Shown: in pieces, positions 258-20,317 of the stretch
Layout: every line of letters begins with the position of its first letter
Position numbering within the stretch: the first letter of the stretch is position 1
Source of the DNA: an uncultured Bacilli bacterium
GTDB taxonomy: Bacteria > Bacillota_I > Bacilli_A > RF39 > UBA660
Length of the DNA: 64,000 bases
Assembly (NCBI GenBank): GCA_944329365.1
Contig: CALVIC010000003.1
Span: forward strand, 8,437-72,436
Direction of reading: 5' to 3'
Position numbers and translations under genes: made by a program
The notes under the pieces: model-generated
Database searches by the model: none
What the model was told of the DNA's origin: nothing
The model's input: the letters and a program-made list of their open reading frames with translations, nothing else

Positions 258-3200
258 TTAGCAAATGTTTTCTAATACTTTTTTTATAATTTCTAATGCA
301 TATTTTCTCTTCAACCTATGGTGAAAAGCTTGATTATTATAATTTCGTAGACAATTATAACAAGAAGTGTTTTCGTCACAACAATTCTGATTAACTTTGT
401 TTTTAGCACATTTAAATACTTCTATAAACATACTCTTATCCATGATTCTTTTTACATGGCCTGCTCCGCCAGGAACATTATCAAAAACAATTAAGTCATA
501 ATTATTATATTTATTCTTTACCACTAAACCATCTATGTCTTTCCTTTCAATAGAAAATTCTTGACTAATTCCTTCTAAAATGGCATATAAAGTGGATAAA
601 GCTTTATCTTTATCGTTTAGATTTTTAATTGATATTTTGGCAACATCTGTTTTAAATTTATGTCCTAATGAAATATGCCATAAATCTTCATCCGGACAAT
701 TAAATCCCTTGAAATCTACATGATTCATTTTTATTTTTTCACTTCCATATGCCGTTTTATCAATTTTTGTATATCCACACGTTTTACACATATAGAATGG
801 ATTTTTGTTGAGAATAAGCAATTCATCATCAGAGGATGTTTCAATTGTTATATAATTATTAGCACCAATCATTAATTTGTTTTCATCTTTTTTTCCGTTC
901 CCAATGTATGATGTCATTCCTGTATAAGTTTTTTTAGGTTTTTTCCTTGTACTTTCATTGGTTTTTCCTGTTTTAAATCCATATATTGGCTCAATAAAGA
1001 AGTTGTTAATAATTTCTTCGTTAGGTGCTTCACAATATTGACATTTCTTTAATTTTTCTGGAAATAAACTTATATTTTCTCTTTCGCAAAATGGACAAGT
1101 GTAATAATAATTTCTAGCAAATTCTTGTGTTTTTGGGAGAGAAATATATCTCGATGTATACTTTATTTTATCAACAATTATTTCTGATTCGGGTGCATAT
1201 TCTGAAATAGCTATACTTAAGTCTCTACTTAGATCATAATCATTATTTATTTTACCATTATCCCATATTTCTAAATTTACTAAATCTATTGGAAATCCAT
1301 ATTTTGGTATAACATTATATTTTGTTAAATTTTTTATTACACTATCTTTTTTTATTTCGTTTACTTGTGTTTGATAATAATCTGCATTTTTAAAATCATT
1401 TTCTTCTTTAGCTTTTTCTATTTCAAAATTATATTTATTTATTGTATCAATTATATTTGTGTAAAATCCTTCTAAATAATCTCCATTATTTTTTATTTCA
1501 TCTATCCATTTATAATCAGAATACTTATTATATGTATTTGAATCTAAAATTTTTGTATTAATAAACTCGTTCAGATCATCTGGATTTTGCTCAATATATT
1601 TTTTAAATTCCTTAATTCCGTCATGGCATACTAAACTATCAATATTTTTAAAATATTCTGGATACTTTCTAAAAAAATACCCAAATGCCGTTGCCATCAA
1701 GTGTCTTAAAATAATTTTTTCATTTGTATTATTAAATTTTGGAGGTTTTATTATTCCTGAAATCATTTTATTTGGATCATCGAAATATGTATAATCATGT
1801 GATGAATAACCACAATATGTTAGTATAAAAGCAGAACTATCTTTACTTCTTCCCGCTCTTCCCGCTCTTTGAACATAATTAGCAGGTGTAGGTGGAACAT
1901 TTCTCATAAAAACCGTTTCTAGTGAGCCTATATCAATGCCCATTTCAAATGTGGTTGAACAACTAAGAATATTTATTTTTTTATCTTTAAATTCTTTTTG
2001 ATATTCTTTTGCCGTTGCTTGTGATAATTGGGCGGTATGCTCTTTAATGTTGATTCTTTCTATTTTTTTAGTCTGATATTCTTTACGATAATAATTATTT
2101 TCAAATATTTTGTCAGGGTCACATTCTTTCAATATTCCATTACAATCCTTGTTTGTACAAACATTATGAACATTATATATTGTTAATTGACCACAATTTG
2201 AACATATATAGTATTGAGTATTTTTGTAGTTATCAAGTTTATATTTACTTGCAGATATTTGATAGACTTCATCACTTATTGAATTACCACTTTCACATAT
2301 ATTACCTTCTACTCCTATTTCATTAAAGATAATCTCTATAATATTACACGCTTCTTCGTGAGAACATTGAGCAACTTTCATTATATATTTTGTATACATA
2401 TTATCTCTGGATGAATAAACAGGTAATAAACTTCTTATATTATTATATTTAGTTTCAGTCTCATTTCTTTTGGATGATGGCTGCTTTTTTAACTTTATAT
2501 AATTATCAAATCTTCTATATGAAAGATATTCTTGTTTTTCAGAATTATTTAATCCAGAAATATTATATTCAATTGCGGGCGTAGTTCTAAAAATATTAAA
2601 TAATACATTAATAATGTTTTTTAAATCGGTTTTATTAATATTATATTTTCCAAATTCATTACTGATATCTTCTTCAGAAATTTCTTCAAAGAGATCATCT
2701 AAATCTAAGGTAAAGTGAAATAATCCTAATCCTTCAGCACTATAATTTCCGTCAATATTTAATAATTCATATAATGCCGTGATCCAAGCTTGTTTATTAC
2801 TTGATATTTTTTTGTTTGTGAACAAATTATATTTTCTAATTAAAGCATCTAATTGAGATAATAAATTATCAAATTTTATAGTTTGATAGTTATTATTTTT
2901 TATAATTTCCCATATTATTCTTTTTCTTAAAAATCTTTCATGGTTTCCTTCAAAAAAGCTTGCAAAAAAACTTGCTTGTTGTCTACTATCTGAAAAAGTA
3001 ATGAATTGTTTTACATATGGTTCTTTTGCCATTTTTAAAGTTTCGTTTCTCTTAAAAAGTACTGTTTTATAATCAGTTGTTTTTTCTGGTTCGTTGTTAT
3101 CAATGGCTTTGTATAATAATTGTGCTAGAATAGCTGTTGCTTCATCTTTTCCTATATTAATACTTCTTACTATTCCATTTTTTTGATGATGTAGACAATT

Positions 3201-4934
3201 AGGACATTCATTAATATTATTTTTCATGGAGTTAGATTTAACTTTGTAAACTGTTATTTTATATTTTTCGTCACATTTACATTTGTTATTATTTATTTTT
3301 TCAGAACTACATAGATAACCACACTTGCCACATAATTCATATTCTTCACAGTTGCTTTTATCAATATTTTCTGTTTCAGCACTATTTGGAATCATATAAT
3401 AATCTACTTCTTTTATTTTATTATCACCATAATTTTCATAAATATCAACATCATCATTTTTTCTTAAATAACCATCTATTTCTTTTCCAAAAAGGAACGA
3501 AGTATTACAATACCGACATGTACCAAGTTCAAATGTATTTAATTCATTTATCTTATTTGTAGGCGTCAAAGTTAAATATTTTTTCGGATCAATAGTAACA
3601 AATGCTCCAGATAAAGTTCTAATAAACGTATGATATTTTATATCATATAAATATTTATTATTCTTTTTTGCAACATTTATTAAATGAATTAATGAAACCA
3701 AATCTTGATCTTTATCAAAACCATTATCTTTTAGTTGTTTTATTATATCCTTAAATTGGCGATTTTTACTTGCTAGAAGATTATACAAATCATAAATGTT
3801 TTTATCTTTAATTAAAAGTTCATAGAGTATTCCCTCTATATCATTACTATTTGTTAATGTATATTTATGGGCAATGTTTTCTATTATATTTTTATTTTCT
3901 AAGTTTTCTTCTAATTCGCAATATATATCTGGATTTATTTGATATTCAATGTTTGAATCATCCAAATTTTTTCTAGTAGAAAAAATTATATCTGACTCCG
4001 AATAATTACTAGAAGTAAGTGATTTTGCAAATTCAATGATTGTTTGTTCATCTTTTCCCTTTTCACCTAATGTAGCACTAGTTAATATAAATTGCGGCTT
4101 TTTTTCAATTAGTCCAGTCAGTCTTTTTAGTAAATATGAAACTTCAATTCCTAAAGCCCCGCTATATGTATGTGCTTCATCTAATACAATAAATTTCCAA
4201 TGTCTCAAATATTCTTTATTAAAAATTTTAAAGTCGTTGGGTCTAATCAGGAGATATTCTAACATGGAATAATTTGTAAATAATAAGTGTGGAGGATTAT
4301 TTCTTATTTCTTCCCTACTTATTACCTCGTTTTGTGGTATTTTTGTGCCAAATTTTTTGAATAATTCTTCACGCGTGTTTTTATATTCTTCTTCTGTTTC
4401 TCCAGTAAAAAATCCAAATCTTATTTCAGTATAATTCATTAATATATTTCTTAGTCTATCCATTTGATCATTTACTAACGCATTCATTGGATATAATAGA
4501 ATAGCTCTTATTCCTGGCCCGTTATCTCCTTTTTCTATATCACGTAGTATTGAATTTAATATTGGATATAAAAAACTTTCTGTTTTACCTGATCCAGTGC
4601 CAGTTGTAATGACAACATTTCTACCATTTGTAATTTTTCTTAATGCTTGTTCCTGATGATAATATAATTTTTGATTAAAATCAATGTTATTAAGTTTTTT
4701 AAATAAAGGACTAACAGTTCCTTCCTCAATCAAATCATTAATTGATTTGGATGAAACAAATGGCAAGCTGATATTTAAAAAAGGACCTTTGTATAATACT
4801 TGTTTATCTAACTCCCTTTCAAACTCTGTTTTATATTCGTTATCTTTAAACGAAAATGTATCTTTTAAATATTCGCGAAATTCACTTTCAATGAATTTGG
4901 CTTCTTCTATAGGATTTAACTTTTTTTCTTTCAT
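258..4934 (-). CDS. Giant SF2 DExH helicase with a C-terminal DUF1998/MrfA-type zinc-binding domain (DruE-like)
   Basis: 1558 aa. Helicase motifs: motif I VVITTGTGSGKTESF, motif II FIVLDEAHTYSG, motif III LTSATLG, motif VI YVQRAGRAGRS near aa 1022. The C-terminus NVPGGAGHV...CCDENTSCYNCLRNYNNQAFHHRLKRKYA fits the DUF1998 signature. Several CxxC zinc-ribbon pairs are present. The ATG lies 3 nt after the stop of the upstream ORF. Confidence 0.6.
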   Translation of the reverse strand: MKEKKLNPIEEAKFIESEFREYLKDTFSFKDNEYKTEFERELDKQVLYKGPFLNISLPFVSSKSINDLIEEGTVSPLFKKLNNIDFNQKLYYHQEQALRKITNGRNVVITTGTGSGKTESFLYPILNSILRDIEKGDNGPGIRAILLYPMNALVNDQMDRLRNILMNYTEIRFGFFTGETEEEYKNTREELFKKFGTKIPQNEVISREEIRNNPPHLLFTNYSMLEYLLIRPNDFKIFNKEYLRHWKFIVLDEAHTYSGALGIEVSYLLKRLTGLIEKKPQFILTSATLGEKGKDEQTIIEFAKSLTSSNYSESDIIFSTRKNLDDSNIEYQINPDIYCELEENLENKNIIENIAHKYTLTNSNDIEGILYELLIKDKNIYDLYNLLASKNRQFKDIIKQLKDNGFDKDQDLVSLIHLINVAKKNNKYLYDIKYHTFIRTLSGAFVTIDPKKYLTLTPTNKINELNTFELGTCRYCNTSFLFGKEIDGYLRKNDDVDIYENYGDNKIKEVDYYMIPNSAETENIDKSNCEEYELCGKCGYLCSSEKINNNKCKCDEKYKITVYKVKSNSMKNNINECPNCLHHQKNGIVRSINIGKDEATAILAQLLYKAIDNNEPEKTTDYKTVLFKRNETLKMAKEPYVKQFITFSDSRQQASFFASFFEGNHERFLRKRIIWEIIKNNNYQTIKFDNLLSQLDALIRKYNLFTNKKISSNKQAWITALYELLNIDGNYSAEGLGLFHFTLDLDDLFEEISEEDISNEFGKYNINKTDLKNIINVLFNIFRTTPAIEYNISGLNNSEKQEYLSYRRFDNYIKLKKQPSSKRNETETKYNNIRSLLPVYSSRDNMYTKYIMKVAQCSHEEACNIIEIIFNEIGVEGNICESGNSISDEVYQISASKYKLDNYKNTQYYICSNCGQLTIYNVHNVCTNKDCNGILKECDPDKIFENNYYRKEYQTKKIERINIKEHTAQLSQATAKEYQKEFKDKKINILSCSTTFEMGIDIGSLETVFMRNVPPTPANYVQRAGRAGRSKDSSAFILTYCGYSSHDYTYFDDPNKMISGIIKPPKFNNTNEKIILRHLMATAFGYFFRKYPEYFKNIDSLVCHDGIKEFKKYIEQNPDDLNEFINTKILDSNTYNKYSDYKWIDEIKNNGDYLEGFYTNIIDTINKYNFEIEKAKEENDFKNADYYQTQVNEIKKDSVIKNLTKYNVIPKYGFPIDLVNLEIWDNGKINNDYDLSRDLSIAISEYAPESEIIVDKIKYTSRYISLPKTQEFARNYYYTCPFCERENISLFPEKLKKCQYCEAPNEEIINNFFIEPIYGFKTGKTNESTRKKPKKTYTGMTSYIGNGKKDENKLMIGANNYITIETSSDDELLILNKNPFYMCKTCGYTKIDKTAYGSEKIKMNHVDFKGFNCPDEDLWHISLGHKFKTDVAKISIKNLNDKDKALSTLYAILEGISQEFSIERKDIDGLVVKNKYNNYDLIVFDNVPGGAGHVKRIMDKSMFIEVFKCAKNKVNQNCCDENTSCYNCLRNYNNQAFHHRLKRKYALEIIKKVLENIC

Positions 4935-4937
4935 TTG

Positions 4938-7900
4938 CTACCTTCTTTCTACAATTAATAAACAAGAAAATATATCTGTTGCTCTATTACTTTCGATTTT
5001 ATCTAAAACTGTTCTATTGTCGAAGTCAATAAATAATCCATCACCATCTTTTGTAATACTTGCTTCTATAAGTCCATCGTTAATATCACTTGTAAAGTCA
5101 ATTTCTATCGGGTTTAAATTATTAAACATATGTTTTTGACCTTTTTTAAAAGTATAAATGTTTCCGATAAAATAAGTGTCACTTATTCTTTTTGTTATTT
5201 CAATATATGTATCATAAAGTTTATAGGTTTTGCGGGTAAAATTATTACCAATCATTTGATCAAAATCAACTGTATATATTTTAAAATACCTTCCAACAAA
5301 GTCGTCTAATGATATGTAAGAAAAATTTTCTTTATATAGAATTCTTTCTTTTCCTAATAATCCTGTTTTATCTTCTTTGATTAAAATTAAATATGTTTTA
5401 AATGAAGTTAAACCATTTACTATAAATTGTGTTTCACTACTTTCTATTTTTTTGTTAAAAATTATTTGTTTTTTTTCGTCTAATATCTCATAAGAGATAT
5501 TTCCTCGACCATAAATTGATACATTAGCTTTTAAATTCTTTGCTATTGGGTCATATTTTAAATTAGTTTTTTTTGCATTTACAAAACATTTGTTATAACA
5601 TTGTATAAGTCCTTTTACGTTATCTCCATCAAGAAATTTTAAATAAAAAATGTCTTCTTTATTATACGAAATTAACGTTCCTACATCCAATTCTTTACAA
5701 AATAAATTGTCTTTGGAATATAATGTTGTTAAAACTGTTCCATCTTTTTTTACTATATATACCTTATCATAAGCAATGCCATTTGTGACTATTTTACTTG
5801 AAAATTTAATATCTTTTGTCCAAATATATTCATTGCATCTTTTCCACATATTATTATCTATACGATATATTGGAATATTAATCGGAATTATAAATCCAAA
5901 CTCATATTTATCAAAATATATTTTATTTATGTCATTCGAATTTAAATTAATTATTTTTTCAAAAATATTTTTAGTAAAAGAAGTGCTTATTTTGACATAT
6001 AATTCATTATCAGAATATTCATCAACTAAGTAATTAAAGTCTTTGTCAACAACAACTTTAAAAACATTTGTTTTATACATTTGATTGTTTTTATGTTCCT
6101 CTATCGTAATCGTGTGAATGCCTTTTTTTAAATTGTTTATATTTATAACAAACTGCGTGCTTGCATTTTTATGTTTTTCAGTATAATTTAAATGTGTTAA
6201 TTTGTTTCTTACTCCATCTATATTTATAATGATATCATCACATGATAATTTTGTTTCATAGATTAAATATTTAATATACTTATAAATTTTCAACTTTTCT
6301 TTATTGTTGAAATAAAAAGCATTGGCTTCCACGCCGATTAAACCTGTTTTTTGTAGTGAAGAAAAACTAAATATATCATTACCAATTTTAACAGTATCTC
6401 CTTTTTTTACGTTTAAATATAAAATTTGATAATTTTTGTTTAGTAACTTATTTCTCCATGAATTTTCAATGTTAACACCATTAACGCAAAAAATAGCTAA
6501 GCCTTCATAGTCATTATTATTTTTGATTTCTCGTCCTTCTGAATTAAAAACAATATAATCTCTATATAATAAATTTTTACTATCATAAATGGTCTGATTT
6601 CCACATAATAACTTATATTCTAATTTTCCTAGAGGATTTTCAATCAATATATTCGAACATTCAATACGATATCCTCCTATAATATCGTATACATCCAAGT
6701 CTTCTTTTGAAATGATTTCATCACCATTTGAAATAACAAGTTTGAGTTTTGTATAATCATATGAGTTTTTTATTTTATGATTTGGTATTGATAAATAGAT
6801 ATTGGAACTATTTAGAAGAAATTTAGGCTCCCATCTTGATGATAATTCGATTTTTCGTTTGCTTTTCTCTTTAATCTCTTTGTTAACTTTTCTTTGCCAG
6901 ATTTCAAATCCGTAATTATAATATTTGTTATTTATAGAAGGAATTTGATTTTTCCAATAATATTCATCAATTATTTTCAAAACATTGCCACTTAATTTTA
7001 TTAAATCATTAATTCCTTTCTCATCAGTAATTAAATCTTTTGTTGTTTTAATTAATTTGTATGTTTTGTTTGTTACTTTTAAATCGATTTGATCATTTTC
7101 AAAATTATTCCCCTTAATTCCCTCATAAACAAATAATAATTCTTCTGATAAGTTTGTTTTTTCGGATATTGAATAATCAAAGTTTAGTTTATAAACATCA
7201 TATAAAAAATCAAAAAATGATGGCAAGTATTTTTGAGGTACTATGTCATTCTTTAATACAACCGAAATTATTCTTTCAGTTATTTCTTTTTGAGTATTAT
7301 ATATACTAATAATATTTCTAATTTGTCCTTCTATTTTTTGCTCTGAAAAATTATTATATATATATTTATAGATTTTTCTAACATGGTTGTAAAAATTTCC
7401 GTCATAATTAATTAATCCAATTATCGTCAAAGAAATAAATATAATGTCATAATCTATATCATATATTGAGCATTTGGTTTGCAATAATGACTGCAATTCT
7501 TCTTGTGCTTTATAGTGTATTTTATTGACTAATTTTGCATCATTAATTATATCTATTATGTCATTTCCTATTATTTCGTTATTTTTTAATTTGTACTTAA
7601 TTAGCCTTAGTTTTTTTAGATTACCATTTTCATATAATATTTCTTTAAAAGATAATATGATTTCTTTTTGTTCTTCTTTGCTCAAATAATTGTCTTTTAA
7701 GTATTTATCAATTATTTCATTAACTTTTGAAAAAAATGAATTTTCTAAATTTGATTGATTATTTTTTAACCATTTCTTTAATTTTATAATTTCTTGAAAA
7801 TTAATGATATCATCTGCTTCAATTCCTTGGATTATACCAATTAGTTCACTTTCATTATCTATTTTATTTTTAATATTATTATAATAGTTAGTAAACTTAA

Positions 7901-8111
7901 TTATTTTTTCTTTTTCTTGATTTGTTATTAAGTTATCTTTTAAAATTTGATTTAACAATTTTATAATTTTAATACAATAAATATTATTATCATTGTTGTT
8001 TTCTGTGATCCATTTTTTTAACATTTGAATTTCTTTTTCATTTATAATATTATCGTAATTTATTGAATTTAAGATTCCAAGTAATTCAGAAAATTTATTA
8101 TAATACTTCAT
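4938..8111 (-). CDS. Large protein of unknown function; DruH-like by size and position only
   Basis: 1057 aa. The N-terminus has two ~58-aa helical repeats (aa 17-73 and 97-155). The rest is Asn/Lys/Ile-rich and looks beta-rich. No catalytic motif recognised. GGGAG RBS about 10 nt upstream of the ATG. Stop TAG at 4938-4940 lies 3 nt before the helicase ATG. Confidence 0.4.
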   Translation of the reverse strand: MKYYNKFSELLGILNSINYDNIINEKEIQMLKKWITENNNDNNIYCIKIIKLLNQILKDNLITNQEKEKIIKFTNYYNNIKNKIDNESELIGIIQGIEADDIINFQEIIKLKKWLKNNQSNLENSFFSKVNEIIDKYLKDNYLSKEEQKEIILSFKEILYENGNLKKLRLIKYKLKNNEIIGNDIIDIINDAKLVNKIHYKAQEELQSLLQTKCSIYDIDYDIIFISLTIIGLINYDGNFYNHVRKIYKYIYNNFSEQKIEGQIRNIISIYNTQKEITERIISVVLKNDIVPQKYLPSFFDFLYDVYKLNFDYSISEKTNLSEELLFVYEGIKGNNFENDQIDLKVTNKTYKLIKTTKDLITDEKGINDLIKLSGNVLKIIDEYYWKNQIPSINNKYYNYGFEIWQRKVNKEIKEKSKRKIELSSRWEPKFLLNSSNIYLSIPNHKIKNSYDYTKLKLVISNGDEIISKEDLDVYDIIGGYRIECSNILIENPLGKLEYKLLCGNQTIYDSKNLLYRDYIVFNSEGREIKNNNDYEGLAIFCVNGVNIENSWRNKLLNKNYQILYLNVKKGDTVKIGNDIFSFSSLQKTGLIGVEANAFYFNNKEKLKIYKYIKYLIYETKLSCDDIIINIDGVRNKLTHLNYTEKHKNASTQFVININNLKKGIHTITIEEHKNNQMYKTNVFKVVVDKDFNYLVDEYSDNELYVKISTSFTKNIFEKIINLNSNDINKIYFDKYEFGFIIPINIPIYRIDNNMWKRCNEYIWTKDIKFSSKIVTNGIAYDKVYIVKKDGTVLTTLYSKDNLFCKELDVGTLISYNKEDIFYLKFLDGDNVKGLIQCYNKCFVNAKKTNLKYDPIAKNLKANVSIYGRGNISYEILDEKKQIIFNKKIESSETQFIVNGLTSFKTYLILIKEDKTGLLGKERILYKENFSYISLDDFVGRYFKIYTVDFDQMIGNNFTRKTYKLYDTYIEITKRISDTYFIGNIYTFKKGQKHMFNNLNPIEIDFTSDINDGLIEASITKDGDGLFIDFDNRTVLDKIESNRATDIFSCLLIVERR

Positions 8112-15695: not shown

Positions 15696-17570
15696 TTATT
15701 GATTAATTTTACTTTTAAAATAATATTGTAATTTTTTGTTTGTACAGTACACATAACAACCTTTCATTCCTCTTGTCATAAGTGTTCTATATGTGTTTTT
15801 TATAATTTTATCTGCTATTTCATTTGCTACCTCTTGTCCTTGCTCTTTTGCAATTTTATGTATTCCTTTCAATGATTGATCAGTTTTAGCTCTTTTTGTA
15901 TAATCAGTAACAATATGACCATCTTCATACCTAATATCATCCCCAATTATTACTCCAACATAATCAAATTCTAATCCCTGACAAGTGTGAATACAACCAA
16001 CTTCATTTACTGATGTTGAATCAATTGCCCAGGTTTGAGAATTACCTAAATTCCAGCTCATTTCAAAATTATATTCTGGGATTACTATATCGTGAACATT
16101 AGAATTATTTTTACCATTGCTAATCCAATTCCAACAATATCCTGCAACCAATCTTGATTTATTATTTATTTTATTTTTTTCTTCTATTAATCTTCTTAAT
16201 TCATTTGGATTATCTATTACTTTAAAATCATAATCAAAATCCATACCATCGAAGTTTGCTGTTTTTCTTATTTCTAAAACGTTATCTAGCCAAGCAAGAT
16301 AACCATCTGACCCATTACATCTAAATTGACTTTCTAATTCAACTACTTTAATTCCGGCGTTTAATTCTTTAGCAAATTTTTTTATTTCATCTACTGACCC
16401 AATATCTTTTAATGTAACTTTTTGGTCTTCATCAATGAAAAATATTGAAAAATTTGAAGCATTAATAATTTCTTTAATTTGATTTTCTCCTAGATTTTGG
16501 AACATTCCTGATTTTGCATTTAATCTATGTGCTTCATCGACAATTAAGCAATCAACTTCATTGCTTTCGGCTTCTGTAAAATTTCCTGAACCTTGAAATA
16601 AATTGTTAATATATGACATTTTGAAAGAACCTTTTAATTTATCTCTAAATACTGCTCTTGGAGCAGCGTTCTTTGTTACATAAAAACATGTCATATTTCG
16701 GCTAGTAAGTTCTACTAATAAGTTAATTGCTAAAACTGATTTTCCAGTTCCCGGTCCTCCTTGTACTACCAATACATTTTTCTCATTTGCAGATAAAGTA
16801 TCGATTGCCATTCTAATAGCATCTTCATAAATGACCTTTTGCTCATCAATCATATTAAATTCTTTGTTGCCCTGTAACATTTTTGTAAGAGAGTCTTGAA
16901 GTCGTTTTGATGGTCTTATTTTTCCATTTTCAATTTTATATAGAGTTTCTCTATCGTCTCCTTCAAGAATATATTTTTTTATAAAATTTCTTAATTTTAT
17001 AAAATCATTTGCTCCAAACATAGGTGCTTCATTTATATATTCTTGATATTGACTACTACAAATCGGGTCATCTTTACTTAATACATAGTTATGTAAAAAG
17101 GCACAAGGATATAGGCCTATATCTTCTAATTGTACAGTTTCATTAAAATCTCTAATTAAATTTGCATAACTCATAGCTTGATAGGAAGGATGAGTCACTT
17201 CTCTTATGGCATGGCCAGTAAATGTTGAAACTATTCCGTCTTTACCTTCAACTGCTTCACATTTTTCCCACTGCTTTAATTCTATAATAATAACCGAATT
17301 TTTTTTATTTTTATCTCTTCCTGATAAAATAAAGTCTATTCTTTTAGATGTTGTTGGAATATTAAATTCGATTGCTACACCTGCATTATCTGGTATTTCT
17401 TTGTCATCTAAGACTCCTCTCATATATTGCATAGAATTCTTCCAAGAATTTAATTGGGGATCACTTGCTCTTCCAAAATACTTTTGATACTTTTCATATA
17501 TTTTATTTACAATTAAATTTAAATTTACATCATTAATGAATCCTGATTTTACTCCTTCATACACCAACAT
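15696..17570 (-). CDS. DUF2075 family protein (Schlafen-group-III-like ATPase/helicase with an N-terminal nuclease-like module)
   Basis: 624 aa. The N-terminus is typical of the family: SWKNSMQYM...IEFNIPTTSKRIDFILSG...VIIIELKQWE. Walker A VVQGGPGTGKSVLA, Walker B CLIVDEAHRL, then FFIDEDQKV. AAGGAG RBS. Start lies 28 nt after the MazG stop. Confidence 0.75.
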   Translation of the reverse strand: MLVYEGVKSGFINDVNLNLIVNKIYEKYQKYFGRASDPQLNSWKNSMQYMRGVLDDKEIPDNAGVAIEFNIPTTSKRIDFILSGRDKNKKNSVIIIELKQWEKCEAVEGKDGIVSTFTGHAIREVTHPSYQAMSYANLIRDFNETVQLEDIGLYPCAFLHNYVLSKDDPICSSQYQEYINEAPMFGANDFIKLRNFIKKYILEGDDRETLYKIENGKIRPSKRLQDSLTKMLQGNKEFNMIDEQKVIYEDAIRMAIDTLSANEKNVLVVQGGPGTGKSVLAINLLVELTSRNMTCFYVTKNAAPRAVFRDKLKGSFKMSYINNLFQGSGNFTEAESNEVDCLIVDEAHRLNAKSGMFQNLGENQIKEIINASNFSIFFIDEDQKVTLKDIGSVDEIKKFAKELNAGIKVVELESQFRCNGSDGYLAWLDNVLEIRKTANFDGMDFDYDFKVIDNPNELRRLIEEKNKINNKSRLVAGYCWNWISNGKNNSNVHDIVIPEYNFEMSWNLGNSQTWAIDSTSVNEVGCIHTCQGLEFDYVGVIIGDDIRYEDGHIVTDYTKRAKTDQSLKGIHKIAKEQGQEVANEIADKIIKNTYRTLMTRGMKGCYVYCTNKKLQYYFKSKINQ

Positions 17571-17598
17571 TTTTCATACTCCTTACTACATTAATAAT

Positions 17599-17916
17599 TT
17601 ATTGTAATTTTGTATATTTTGTACTTACTCCCTTAGCTTTATCTATGGGATATTTTTTAGCAGTAATTTTCATCTTATCTAAAATAATTTGTTCGGGGTC
17701 TGCTCCCAATTTATCTGCAAGCAATAATGAATAATTAAGTACATCAGCAAGTTCTGATTTTACCTCATCAATATTATAATTAGAGTTCCATTGAAAGCAT
17801 TCTAATAGTTCGCCTGCCTCTATAGAAATTGATTTTGCTAAATTCTCTGGACTATGAAATTGATCCCAGTCTCGTTCTTCAGTAAATTGTTTTATCTCTT
17901 TTATAAGATTTTTCAT
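17599..17916 (-). CDS. MazG-like nucleotide pyrophosphohydrolase
   Basis: 105 aa. ERDWDQFHSPENLAKSISIEAGELLECFQW with the ExxE metal motif is typical of small MazG-like pyrophosphohydrolases. Confidence 0.8.
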   Translation of the reverse strand: MKNLIKEIKQFTEERDWDQFHSPENLAKSISIEAGELLECFQWNSNYNIDEVKSELADVLNYSLLLADKLGADPEQIILDKMKITAKKYPIDKAKGVSTKYTKLQ

Positions 17917-18123
17917 TTTTACATCTCCTAAAATAACTTTTTCATAATTAAGTTTTATTTTCTTATTCTATATAGTAATGTTTTAAATCCTTTTTACTTC
18001 ATCAATCATTAGTTTTCCTAATTCGTTCTCTTTTTATGACTTTTTCACTCATATAATCACCACTGATATTTATGATTTATTATAGCATGTTAATTTATAA
18101 TTAGTAAATCAATATATCAATGA

Positions 18124-18684
18124 TTACTTTTTATTTAGCTCATTTTTTACCCATCCAAGTAGTTCAGTTAATACTTTCTCTCTATTAACTGATGTATTTA
18201 CAAATTTTAGCTTATATTTTTTTGAATCTTTTTCAAATTGTTGGCTTTTAGCAATTTCTCTTTCAGCTTTTTCTAAAAGTGTTTCATCTGATATATTTCT
18301 AGTCCAATCTTTTAATCTTTGATAAGTTCTCCAGTTAGAAAGGCATTCTTCTTTAGTTAAGTCCGGGTAACCAAAAACTATAATAATATTATTTTCAAAC
18401 AATTTATAATCTTCCGGTTTAAAATCGACGGTATCTAGAATAACGTATAAACTTTCACTATATTTAACACTATAATCAAAATACGATTTTAAGAATTTTC
18501 GATACTCAAGGATTTCTTTCATAAGCCCTGTTTTTACTGTTTTATCTTTGTATATTTCATCTCTGTATGCAAGTCTTACTAAATCACCTGATATAATCTG
18601 ACATGACTTAAGTTCTTTCATTAATATTTGTGAAAACGTACTTTTACCTGCTCTAGAGGCACCAATTAAAACTATTCCTTTCAC
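18124..18684 (-). CDS. Small P-loop NTPase/kinase-like protein
   Basis: 186 aa. Walker A at the extreme N-terminus (VLIGASRAGKSTF). GTG start lies 1 nt after the TAA of the upstream ORF, which suggests translational coupling. Confidence 0.5.
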   Translation of the reverse strand: MKGIVLIGASRAGKSTFSQILMKELKSCQIISGDLVRLAYRDEIYKDKTVKTGLMKEILEYRKFLKSYFDYSVKYSESLYVILDTVDFKPEDYKLFENNIIIVFGYPDLTKEECLSNWRTYQRLKDWTRNISDETLLEKAEREIAKSQQFEKDSKKYKLKFVNTSVNREKVLTELLGWVKNELNKK

Positions 18685-18685
18685 G

Positions 18686-19600
18686 TTAGATTCCTTTCAT
18701 ATAATTTTTTAGCTTTTCAAATATCGGAAGATTACCTTTATAACTTTTTGGAGAAATTGGACTAGGGTGATATATGGGCAATACTTTATATCCATTTACT
18801 TCATAAATGTTACCTACAACTTCAGAAAACTTTTTAAATTTAAAGCTTAATAGATTTCTAGTTGGAAACTCTCCTAAAGTAATTATTAATTTGGGGTTTA
18901 ATATTTCTAATTGTTTAAGCATTATGTTTTTACAGTTAGTAGAACATATTTTTAGGCTTTTTCTTTCTATTGGATAACATTTTACTGATTCTATAAAAGT
19001 AGTTTCAAATATATCTTTATTTATAATATCAAATAGTTTTTGTAATATAACTCCGCTAGGTAATATTTTACCATTTATATCTTTCCATAACATGTGACTT
19101 TTTCGCCATCCATTGTTTGCTGGAGCTTCTCCGATTAAAACAATATCATTATTTTTACCCAAAAATACAGTTGATGAGTTTGGAAACTTTTCAACTAAGG
19201 CTCCACATTTATGACACTTATATACTTCTTTATCTACTTCTTCTAATAACTTCTTTTTAACTTTATTTTTTAGTGTTTGATATCTATTATTTGTATCTTC
19301 CGTCAAAATTTTTTCTTTATCAATTATTTTGTAATCTTCGCAGTTTATTTCTTTAGCAAATTGTTCTTTTGTTAAATCAACTATTTGATTATTTATTAAA
19401 TTAAAGTAATGACTGATCCCATCAACTTTTGTTTTGGCTATTTCTCCACCAAAATAATCATTTACTACTAACGAAGTGATTGCACACATGCCTAAAGTTT
19501 TATTTGATTCATTCCATCGATTTTGTACTTTTATGTAACATAAATCTTTAGAATAACATTTTAATAAAGATTTCTTTAATTTTTCTATTGTCATAAACAT
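18686..19600 (-). CDS. Fusion of a YunG-like N-terminal domain with a uracil-DNA glycosylase superfamily (family 4/5-like) domain
   Basis: 304 aa. N-terminal LGMCAITSLVVNDYFGGEI...HYFNLINNQIVDLTKEQF resembles B. subtilis YunG. C-terminal half has VLIGEAPANNGWRKS, VKCYP and LPIYHPSPISP, which are UDG-superfamily motifs. Confidence 0.6.
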   Translation of the reverse strand: MFMTIEKLKKSLLKCYSKDLCYIKVQNRWNESNKTLGMCAITSLVVNDYFGGEIAKTKVDGISHYFNLINNQIVDLTKEQFAKEINCEDYKIIDKEKILTEDTNNRYQTLKNKVKKKLLEEVDKEVYKCHKCGALVEKFPNSSTVFLGKNNDIVLIGEAPANNGWRKSHMLWKDINGKILPSGVILQKLFDIINKDIFETTFIESVKCYPIERKSLKICSTNCKNIMLKQLEILNPKLIITLGEFPTRNLLSFKFKKFSEVVGNIYEVNGYKVLPIYHPSPISPKSYKGNLPIFEKLKNYMKGI

Positions 19601-20240: not shown

Positions 20241-20317
20241 TGGGGCGGAATATCGGATTCGAACCGATGCATAATGGAACCACAATCCACCGTGTTAACC
20301 CCTTCACCAATTCCGCC
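20241..20317 (-). tRNA. tRNA-His (anticodon GUG)
   Basis: Reverse complement is GGCGGAATTGGTGAAGGGGTTAACACGGTGGATTGTGGTTCCATTATGCATCGGTTCGAATCCGATATTCCGCCCCA. Acceptor stem GCGGAAT/ATTCCGC. An extra G-1 pairs with C73, the His hallmark. Anticodon loop TTGTGGT, T-loop TTCGAAT, encoded CCA. Confidence 0.95.

Follow-up and report, generated by a model that had tools for sequence, protein, structure and literature searches.

The stretch of DNA analysed here, which we call the window, comprises 64,000 nucleotides (nt) of contig CALVIC010000003.1 from an uncultured Bacilli bacterium, and the system in question is a pair of adjacent genes within it, one encoding a small MazG-like pyrophosphohydrolase and the other a nuclease-helicase of the family formerly known as DUF2075 (Table 1). 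An initial annotation, made from the letters of the sequence alone, had proposed that the two form an operon combining nucleotide depletion with the targeting of nucleic acids. Its gene boundaries and the gap between the genes are confirmed in the sequence; the ribosome-binding site, which it had placed 9 nt upstream of the DUF2075 start, actually lies at 8 nt. Its view that the gap contains no terminator and that the genes are co-transcribed is also supported. A scan of the minus strand, the coding one, finds no terminator-like hairpin in the spacer and no terminator following either gene. The pair is conserved elsewhere (see below), and the two genes are probably a co-transcribed, conserved unit. 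A pattern scan returns a candidate promoter about 160 nt upstream of the MazG start, although promoter-like sites are no more numerous in this region than in shuffled AT-rich sequence, which makes the scan weak evidence for this particular site. An Rfam scan finds no riboswitch or other RNA element in the operon leader, a tRNA-His being its sole match.

Table 1. The gene pair, its neighbours in the window, and genes inserted between the pair at other loci (L numbers denote loci outside the window).
Feature	Position or locus	Strand	Remarks
MazG-like gene	17599..17916	minus	105 residues; first in operon
DUF2075 nuclease-helicase gene	15696..17570	minus	624 residues; second in operon
Spacer between MazG-like and DUF2075 genes	17571..17598	minus	28 nt
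Ribosome-binding site AAGGAG	17579..17584	minus	8 nt before DUF2075 ATG
Predicted PD-(D/E)xK nuclease domain	17091..17570	minus	about residues 1-160 of DUF2075 protein
Predicted superfamily 1B (SF1B)-type helicase/ATPase core and family-specific C-terminal region	15741..16781	minus	residues 264-610 (Pfam match coordinates)
Candidate sigma-70-type promoter, TTTACT-18-TATAAT, extended -10 TG	18079..18108	minus	pattern scan, 10/12 matches
P-loop protein, 1511 residues	10865..15400	minus	directly downstream of DUF2075 gene; Walker A GKAGYGKSG
Upf1/Dna2-like SF1 helicase (AAA_11/AAA_12) with C-terminal DUF2726, 832 residues	8238..10736	minus
Gene of 1057 residues, DruH-sized	4938..8111	minus	precedes DruE; no Pfam or PADLOC match
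DruE helicase, DEAD + Helicase_C + MZB	258..4934	minus	PADLOC DruE1, E 4.5e-181
P-loop kinase-like gene, 186 residues	18124..18684	minus	1 nt after YunG-glycosylase fusion
YunG + uracil-DNA-glycosylase-superfamily fusion	18686..19600	minus
tRNA-His (GTG)	20241..20316		edge of low-GC block
Insert: DpnII/MboI-like nuclease (REase)	L007
Insert: HEPN AbiU2 protein	L008-L010
Insert: reverse transcriptase	L094-L096		same chromosomal site as window pair
Insert: UvrD-like helicase + DUF2290 (Helicase+DUF2290)	L101
Insert: DRT reverse transcriptase UG13b			PADLOC/Pfam, E 3.3e-112
Insert: DUF3427 type IV methyl-directed restriction enzyme (mREase_IV)			E 4.6e-225
Inserts: PtuA-like ATPase; HNH endonucleases			not assigned to one locus; Pfam/PADLOC
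Inserts: PbeA; PDC-S07			Pfam/PADLOC
Inserts: NERD; Hypoth_Ymh; DUF4145; NUDIX; PLD nucleases			Pfam/PADLOC

The larger protein is matched over residues 264-610 by PF09848, SLFN-g3_helicase (formerly DUF2075), at an E value of 2.6e-107, with a score of 359.6 bits against a cut-off of 24 and with model positions 1-353 of 354 covered. All of the motifs quoted in the initial annotation are present: the Walker A sequence GPGTGKS at residues 272-278, the Walker B sequence DEAH at 345-348 and the N-terminal RIDFILSG...IIIELKQWE at 77-102. In an alignment of 57 orthologues of 30-87% identity, the invariant residues of the ATPase are G274, G276, K277, D345, E346, Q383, R417, Q531 and R600, and those of the N-terminal part are E68, R77, D79, E97, K99, W101, H127, P128 and Y135, with Q131 near-invariant. 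The order E...D...ExK among the N-terminal invariants is the signature of a PD-(D/E)xK nuclease, and a QxxxY motif then follows, so that the nuclease motifs read E68, D79, E97-x-K99 and Q131-x-x-x-Y135; the last of these suggests a nuclease of RecB type.

Structural predictions are consistent with this division. The AlphaFold2 model of the whole protein has a predicted local distance difference test score (pLDDT) of 91.8, and its best Foldseek matches in the PDB are human SLFN11 (7zel, the best, E 3.1e-10), the deep-sea helicase DSH9, RecD2, Dna2, Dda and Upf1, because of which we assign the helicase to the SF1B type. The N-terminal 240 residues modelled by themselves (pLDDT 94.5) match, at the top of the ranking, the nuclease domain of Card1 (the best of the Foldseek list, probability 0.99, E 1.9e-3), EcoO109I, Shedu, EndoMS, SfsA, BstEII and HamA, all of which are PD-(D/E)xK proteins, and no RecB, Cas4 or AddB structure is among the 50 matches listed for this domain. 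Because the matches are coherent but weak, we do not claim membership of a specific PD-(D/E)xK subfamily. A PDB sequence search with the protein returns nothing at E <= 0.01. By Pfam, by conserved residues and by fold matches, then, the DUF2075 protein is predicted to be an N-terminal PD-(D/E)xK nuclease joined to an SF1B Schlafen-type helicase, both with intact predicted motifs, which bears out the domain plan of the initial annotation.

Some orthologues, of about 790-820 residues, carry in addition a C-terminal Peptidase_S24 domain of LexA/UmuD-like type, with matches up to E 2.4e-23 (P0121, P0124, P0126, P0129, P0133, P0186 and P0202), and one, P0166, has a fusion to a PIF1-like helicase in its place. 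The S24-fused versions occur in many Proteobacteria, Verrucomicrobia and others. About 12 of the 80 species-genome loci described below have open reading frames (ORFs) of 793-824 residues, the size of the S24 fusions, and those in L029, L046-L049, L051, L054, L057, L058, L060, L061 and L065 probably carry the domain too. The peptidase suggests that in these versions self-cleavage stimulated by RecA bound to single-stranded DNA (RecA-ssDNA) acts as a switch.

The small protein belongs to PF12643, MazG-like (E 5.7e-20; 71.8 bits against a cut-off of 27). The solved structures nearest to it are those of mouse RS21-C6 and human DCTPP1 (2a3q, 6sqw), with a full-length alignment at E 5.7e-16, and that of an archaeal pyrophosphatase. 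We compared 56 MazG partners of DUF2075 genes with mouse RS21-C6. The residues with at least 90% conservation that the mouse protein has as well are F11, R15, W17, F20, H21, E33, E36, L37, E39, F41, W43, E55, D58, K81, K88, Y89, P90 and K100, whereas A57, conserved to the same degree, is Ser in mouse RS21-C6. The acidic ExxE...ExxD residues E33, E36, E55 and D58 are 98-100% conserved; they correspond to RS21-C6 E63, E66, E95 and D98, which we take to be metal ligands, and W17 and W43 correspond to W47 and W73, which presumably stack on the base. The likeness to the mammalian enzyme thus includes the presumed ligands and stacking tryptophans, and the difference is that DCTPP1 is a eukaryotic housekeeping enzyme without a dedicated nuclease partner.

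The MazG-like protein is a minimal domain of the DCTPP1/RS21-C6 type, without a regulatory or sensor module, and it matches none of the PADLOC v2.0.0 models at E <= 0.01, the nucleotide-depletion enzymes (dCTP deaminase, dGTPase and others) included. RS21-C6/DCTPP1 and the E. coli NUDIX enzyme Orf135/NudG are known as highly specific hydrolases of 5-methyl-deoxycytidine triphosphate (5-methyl-dCTP) (PMC10742078). From these resemblances we infer that the partner is catalytically active on non-canonical deoxynucleoside triphosphates (dNTPs), most likely 5-modified dCTPs. The initial annotation had given MazG a role in nucleotide depletion; for a minimal enzyme with sanitiser relatives and no PADLOC match, sanitation of the pool seems to fit better than bulk depletion of dNTPs. 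MazG does figure among the predicted, unvalidated defence domains of DefensePredictor, in the form of MazG fused to a MazG-C kinase (PMC13092281).

The linkage of the two genes is conserved. Taking one genome per GTDB species, we collected 80 loci with a DUF2075 orthologue, the ORFs at these related loci being called by a simple script rather than a gene finder. A MazG-like ORF on the same strand adjoins the DUF2075 gene at 52 of the 80, and contig ends cut 8 of the 28 loci without MazG, which leaves 52 of 72 assessable loci with the partner. Most of these pairs (42/52) are at most 40 nt apart or overlap, a 4-nt ATGA overlap being frequent. Among 55 pairs, MazG lies upstream of DUF2075 in about 40 and downstream in 15, and the gene order is the same as that of the nearest DUF2075 relative in 48, so that the order swaps in a clade-consistent manner while the linkage is kept. 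Pairwise identities among the MazG proteins track those among their DUF2075 partners (Mantel r = 0.44, a value that 0 of 2000 permutations reach). There is no third conserved gene, the largest neighbour family being present at 5 of the 80 loci. Approached from the other side, through 80 metagenomic loci whose MazG is 66-82% identical to that of the window, a DUF2075 gene follows in 41 of 43 cases where at least 2.5 kb of downstream sequence exists. MazG-like genes number roughly one per genome, yet one stands beside the orthologue in 52 of 80 independent species genomes, which suggests an adjacency beyond chance. Across phyla the two genes stay linked in the same orientation and evolve together, and their adjacency is not confined to the source genome.

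The orthologue loci of the 80-locus survey are distributed over Bacillota, Pseudomonadota, Bacteroidota, Verrucomicrobiota, Planctomycetota, Chloroflexota, Bdellovibrionota, Spirochaetes, Saccharibacteria, Parcubacteria and two archaeal lineages, and the pair itself is recorded in Bacillota, Pseudomonadota, Bacteroidota, Verrucomicrobiota, Chloroflexota, Bdellovibrionota, Saccharibacteria and Parcubacteria. A pair is also annotated in an archaeon, on plasmid 1 of the haloarchaeon Halalkalicoccus jeotgali, where a "nucleotide pyrophosphohydrolase" is followed by a "DUF2075 domain-containing protein". It is also present, at 48% and 55% identity, in Microcystis phage Mwe-JY31 (PP438423.1, L188 3657-5863), a 22-kb record deposited as a cyanophage genome in which all genes are annotated as hypothetical. 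Viral collections hold 3 distant matches in IMG/VR and 4 in GenBank phages, and this near absence indicates that the pair is not mainly phage-borne. No MazG-DUF2075 fusion protein is found among the 390 proteins fetched. On a Hymenobacter plasmid (L187 4001-7987), two tandem DUF2075 genes are preceded by genes for a DNA methyltransferase and a DUF4747 protein, and no MazG is annotated there.

The pairing also recurs with other partners on either side. A second class of DUF2075 protein, of 556-595 residues, follows the same MazG subfamily at L098:5327-7039, L102:5328-7112 and about 19 metagenomic loci (e.g. L106, L108 and L110). It has in common with the window protein the helicase part alone (hhalign E 1.9e-38 over residues 217-623), and its N-terminus gives weak GIY-YIG matches (E 4e-4 and 9e-4, below the Pfam cut-off), so that the partner nuclease in this class is likely GIY-YIG in place of PD-(D/E)xK. 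Conversely, MutT/NudG-family NUDIX genes of about 130 residues lie directly beside type IV enzymes of the architecture PLD-helicase-DUF3427 (L015:2502-5667, L019:8396-11765 and L016:1162-4698), a 126-residue ORF adjoining a DUF3427 enzyme at L160:8331-11848 clusters with the L016 NUDIX gene, and at L033:2854-5387 a NUDIX gene stands beside a 713-residue DUF2075 paralogue with a 4-nt overlap. These NUDIX partners are 35-36% identical to E. coli NudG, and score 79 bits against NudG versus 49 against MutT at L015, and 63 versus 61 at L033. That two unrelated folds of dNTP pyrophosphatase pair with related nuclease-helicases suggests that the pyrophosphatase activity itself is selected. An association of DUF2075 with DUF3427 modification-dependent enzymes had been noted earlier (PMC6765204).

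In gut Bacillota, one to four extra genes often split the pair at the exact site of the window's 28-nt spacer. An insert of more than 140 nt is present in 28 of 62 MazG-anchored metagenomic loci, and over all loci 36 inserted ORFs fall into 24 unrelated families, with known defence genes among them (Table 1). The inserts begin 3-12 nt past the MazG stop and finish at or overlapping the DUF2075 start, which places them in the same transcription unit. MazG and DUF2075 stay linked across up to 4.8 kb of such cargo, which argues that the two belong together, and the embedding of known defence genes between them argues that the frame is itself a defence system. Embedded defence genes are known for Hma, BREX, DISARM and type I restriction-modification (RM) systems (bioRxiv 10.1101/2024.01.29.577857); there too, unrelated defence genes are nested between components that stay linked, the difference being that the MazG/DUF2075 frame has only two genes. 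The text of that study (Payne et al. 2024) does not mention MazG, DUF2075 or Nhi. The commonest insert is a protein of 258-279 residues at six loci (L113:1995-2789, L114:8324-9118, L116:8324-9118, L127:8324-9163, L129:3389-4183 and L141:8327-9103), whose representative (L127, 279 residues) has no Pfam or PADLOC match; by what may be called guilt by embedding, it is a candidate new defence gene. A family of 74-residue ORFs fills the slot in L117, L132 and L137.

The nearest tested relatives of the DUF2075 protein are antiphage proteins. Nhi combines a PD-(D/E)xK nuclease with an SF1B helicase that overlaps DUF2075 (bioRxiv 10.1101/776245); Nhi-like, a validated antiphage protein, has the same architecture as Nhi with no sequence identity to it (bioRxiv 10.1101/2022.05.11.491447), and phages escape it through mutations that inactivate a phage DNA methylase (bioRxiv 10.1101/2022.08.27.505566); AbiO has a PD-(D/E)xK N-terminal domain and an SF1B helicase resembling Schlafen group 3 (PMC13064643). 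The initial annotation had suggested a likeness to Nhi, and a kinship there is, in architecture and through Nhi-like, albeit a remote one. The PADLOC Nhi model matches the helicase core alone, residues 240-420 against model positions 183-332 of 470 (E 1.4e-15), the AbiO model matches partially (E 1e-16, model positions 174-405 of 468), as does PDC-S41 over the helicase core (E 1e-17), and there is no full-length match to the PADLOC Nhi or AbiO models. When the orthologue profile is aligned by hhalign with the first 399 residues of Nhi-like (as given in the paper's supplement), the probability is 98.9% and E 2.9e-17 over 329 columns at about 20% identity, the alignment covering the nuclease motifs together with the helicase's first half. 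From these partial matches and this low identity, we regard the DUF2075 protein as a remote member of their superfamily and as an orthologue of no tested protein.

The likenesses and differences can be stated case by case. Nhi-like (Bacillus cereus FSL H8-0482) has the same N-terminal E...D...ExK...QxxxY nuclease followed by a DUF2075 helicase, but belongs to another clade and was cloned, and is active, as a single gene without MazG. Nhi (SERP2475 of Staphylococcus epidermidis), of similar size and likewise a nuclease with a DUF2075 SF1B helicase, degrades phage DNA, and differs in being a single gene without a pyrophosphatase partner. AbiO, which mediates abortive infection in Lactococcus lactis, follows the same two-domain plan as a single plasmid gene without MazG. 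The human Schlafens of group III (SLFN11, SLFN14) have a helicase of the same Pfam family, but the N-terminal effector of the window protein has a predicted PD-(D/E)xK DNase fold, not that of the Schlafen tRNase. The bacterial Schlafens defined by an RNase domain are a different group (PMC13056530).

That the MazG/DUF2075 pair acts as a defence unit we hold with fair confidence; the exact role of MazG within it is much less certain. The reading that we favour, with modest confidence, is that of a two-gene operon acting against phages or other mobile elements, in which one clade of the AbiO, Nhi and Nhi-like family has acquired a dedicated pyrophosphatase partner and MazG serves as a sanitiser. 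The DUF2075 protein would be the effector, loading on invading or replicating foreign DNA and translocating by means of ATP while its N-terminal nuclease degrades the DNA, as Nhi does; by analogy with Nhi-like, it may prefer modified or otherwise non-self DNA. MazG would remove non-canonical dNTPs, most likely 5-modified dCTPs, and would leave the canonical pool filled. Its action could withhold modified precursors from phages whose DNA is modified, and could also prevent modified nucleotides recovered from broken-down phage DNA from being built into the host chromosome, which would thereby become a target. The S24-fused versions would be switched on by the RecA-ssDNA-stimulated self-cleavage described above.

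Several observations weigh against this reading. Each of AbiO, Nhi and Nhi-like works as one gene by itself (bioRxiv 10.1101/776245; bioRxiv 10.1101/2022.05.11.491447; PMC13064643), and at 20 assessable loci (L014, L017, L018, L019, L021, L024 and 14 more), among which are all those of Bacillaceae, there is no MazG-like ORF within 6 kb. MazG-less loci occur in five genera of Bacillaceae and Caryophanaceae (Rossellomorea, Bacillus, Virgibacillus, Kurthia and Saliterribacillus) and in Methanobrevibacter; MazG is present in Paenibacillus (L028), another Bacillales lineage. Together, these loci and the single-gene relatives indicate that MazG is not essential to the family. Further, the proposed preference for modified DNA is taken over from a relative only about 20% identical, the substrate preference of MazG is read from residue conservation with DCTPP1 and from nothing else, and the structural matches of the N-terminal nuclease are all weak, with template modelling (TM) scores of about 0.3 (best 0.34). 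Nearly all of the embedded inserts are from gut Bacillota, which are densely sampled and among which closely related strains are possible. Finally, the neighbours of the pair in other species do include type IV, II and I restriction enzymes, methyltransferases, Fic/SoFic, AbiEi, PbeA and PD-Lambda-5, but this context is a listing of 268 neighbouring ORFs without a genome-wide background statistic.

The single-gene relatives and the loci without MazG lend themselves to a view in which the nuclease-helicase is an autonomous defence and MazG either a housekeeping sanitiser or a conserved flank that marks a cassette hotspot, with no part in immunity; conserved flanks around variable cargo do resemble the architecture of hotspots. 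We consider this unlikely. The linkage persists in at least eight phyla and at identities of about 35% to 99%, it survives inversion of the gene order and keeps the 4-nt start/stop overlaps, and the partners co-vary. The same MazG subfamily accompanies two classes of nuclease-DUF2075 protein, which looks like selection for the combination, and the pair occupies many chromosomal and plasmid sites, and therefore no fixed hotspot of the core genome. A role for MazG as an inducible effector that collapses a canonical pool of dNTPs, NTPs or alarmones, with the nuclease-helicase as a parallel killing arm, would agree with the intact residues common with RS21-C6, the presumed metal ligands included, and tight translational coupling could let the partner control MazG. 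Depletion is moreover an established defence strategy, e.g. by dCTP deaminase and dGTPase (bioRxiv 10.1101/2022.08.27.505566), and MazG is, as noted, one of DefensePredictor's predicted, unvalidated domains (PMC13092281). Against this, MazG here is a bare 105-residue catalytic domain that lacks any sensor or regulatory module, the characterised enzymes closest to it have a house-cleaning function specific for 5-modified dCTP (PMC10742078), it resembles no PADLOC model, and a constitutive depleter of canonical dNTPs would be toxic. That MutT/NudG-type NUDIX sanitisers replace MazG beside related nucleases also points to sanitation chemistry, and we regard depletion as distinctly improbable.

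It seems more improbable still that the pair is a module for DNA repair or replication stress, in which, under SOS control, stalled forks or damaged DNA would be the substrates of the helicase-nuclease and damaged dNTPs those of MazG. The pair has a scattered distribution that looks like the product of horizontal transfer, taking in bacteria of the candidate phyla radiation (CPR), archaeal plasmids and a phage record; the neighbourhoods are highly variable; the window's pair sits in a low-GC island (see below); defence genes stand around and inside the operon; and the nearest tested relatives are phage-resistance proteins. These points outweigh, in our view, the LexA/UmuD-type S24 peptidase at the C-terminus of many orthologues, the resemblance of the fold to Dna2 and RecD2, the action of eukaryotic SLFN11 at stressed replication forks (PMC6765204) and the housekeeping role of DCTPP1 as a sanitiser (PMC10742078).

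The reading that we favour, a defence operon with MazG as sanitiser, may be an instance of something broader, which we offer tentatively and with some doubt. As a general rule, nucleases directed at DNA that is modified or foreign would come with a small dNTP pyrophosphatase as guardian of the nucleotide pool, which would starve phages that make modified DNA and prevent autoimmunity caused by salvaged modified nucleotides, and the two genes would together serve as a mobile frame for the capture of effectors. The partner could be a DCTPP1-type MazG, or a MutT/NudG-type NUDIX enzyme beside DUF3427 enzymes and the DUF2075 paralogue. The frame would capture and co-express second-line effectors (reverse transcriptases, HEPN RNases, HNH and PLD nucleases), which may in turn guard the frame, on the model of PrrC, which guards EcoprrI.

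Single-gene nuclease-DUF2075 defences are already known; the two-gene variant with MazG is probably new and undescribed. In the literature that could be searched, outside which most subscription journals lie, there is nothing relevant on DUF2075 with MazG, on MazG with Nhi or on Schlafen with MazG, and no description of the pair as a host for embedded systems, which upholds the statement of the initial annotation that no named system consists of this pair. To our knowledge, there is also no earlier case of a DCTPP1-type MazG enzyme in immunity. If our reading is right, a widespread two-gene system, found in many bacterial phyla and on an archaeal plasmid, would join the catalogue of defences, and it would represent, as far as we know, the first immune role for an enzyme of this type. 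It would link the policing of modified nucleotides at the level of the pool to restriction at the level of DNA, and would bear on how bacteria resist phages whose genomes are hypermodified and on how modification-dependent nucleases spare the cell's own chromosome. The variable slot between the genes could serve as a resource that flags uncharacterised families as defence candidates. Since the helicase is a bacterial counterpart of the helicase domain of SLFN11, its mechanism may also inform human Schlafen biology.

The surroundings of the pair within the window agree with a role in defence. Positions 1 to about 20,000, the pair among them, have a guanine-plus-cytosine (GC) content of 22-28%, against 29-36% elsewhere in the window, and a low-GC block beside a tRNA-His gene is a signature of a genomic island; no integrase is present in the part of the island that lies in the window. 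The window itself is a defence island. The 1057-residue gene and DruE together have the layout that we take to be that expected of Druantia type III (DruH-DruE). The 832-residue helicase-DUF2726 protein matches the PADLOC helicase models MkoA and MkoC of Mokosh at E 1e-46 to 2e-47, has no PLD domain, and may be a separate single-gene defence candidate.

Upstream of the pair, the YunG-glycosylase fusion and the kinase-like gene (18124..19600) were considered as further parts of the system, a thought prompted by the DefensePredictor prediction of MazG with a MazG-C kinase and a uracil-DNA glycosylase (UDG); UDG and nucleotide kinase are among that method's predicted defence domains (PMC13092281). 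We rejected both genes because they do not stand beside the pair outside the window's lineage; moreover, the kinase-like gene has no MazG-C Pfam match and is replaced at the same locus in L094 by a 124-residue gene and Shedu (SduA_C). On the other side, the gene for the 1511-residue P-loop protein follows the pair in L001-L006 and L094-L096 and in no other lineages. That protein gives a weak match to PADLOC PDC-M54A (E 2.3e-11), and its N-terminus resembles a D...QxK nuclease motif.

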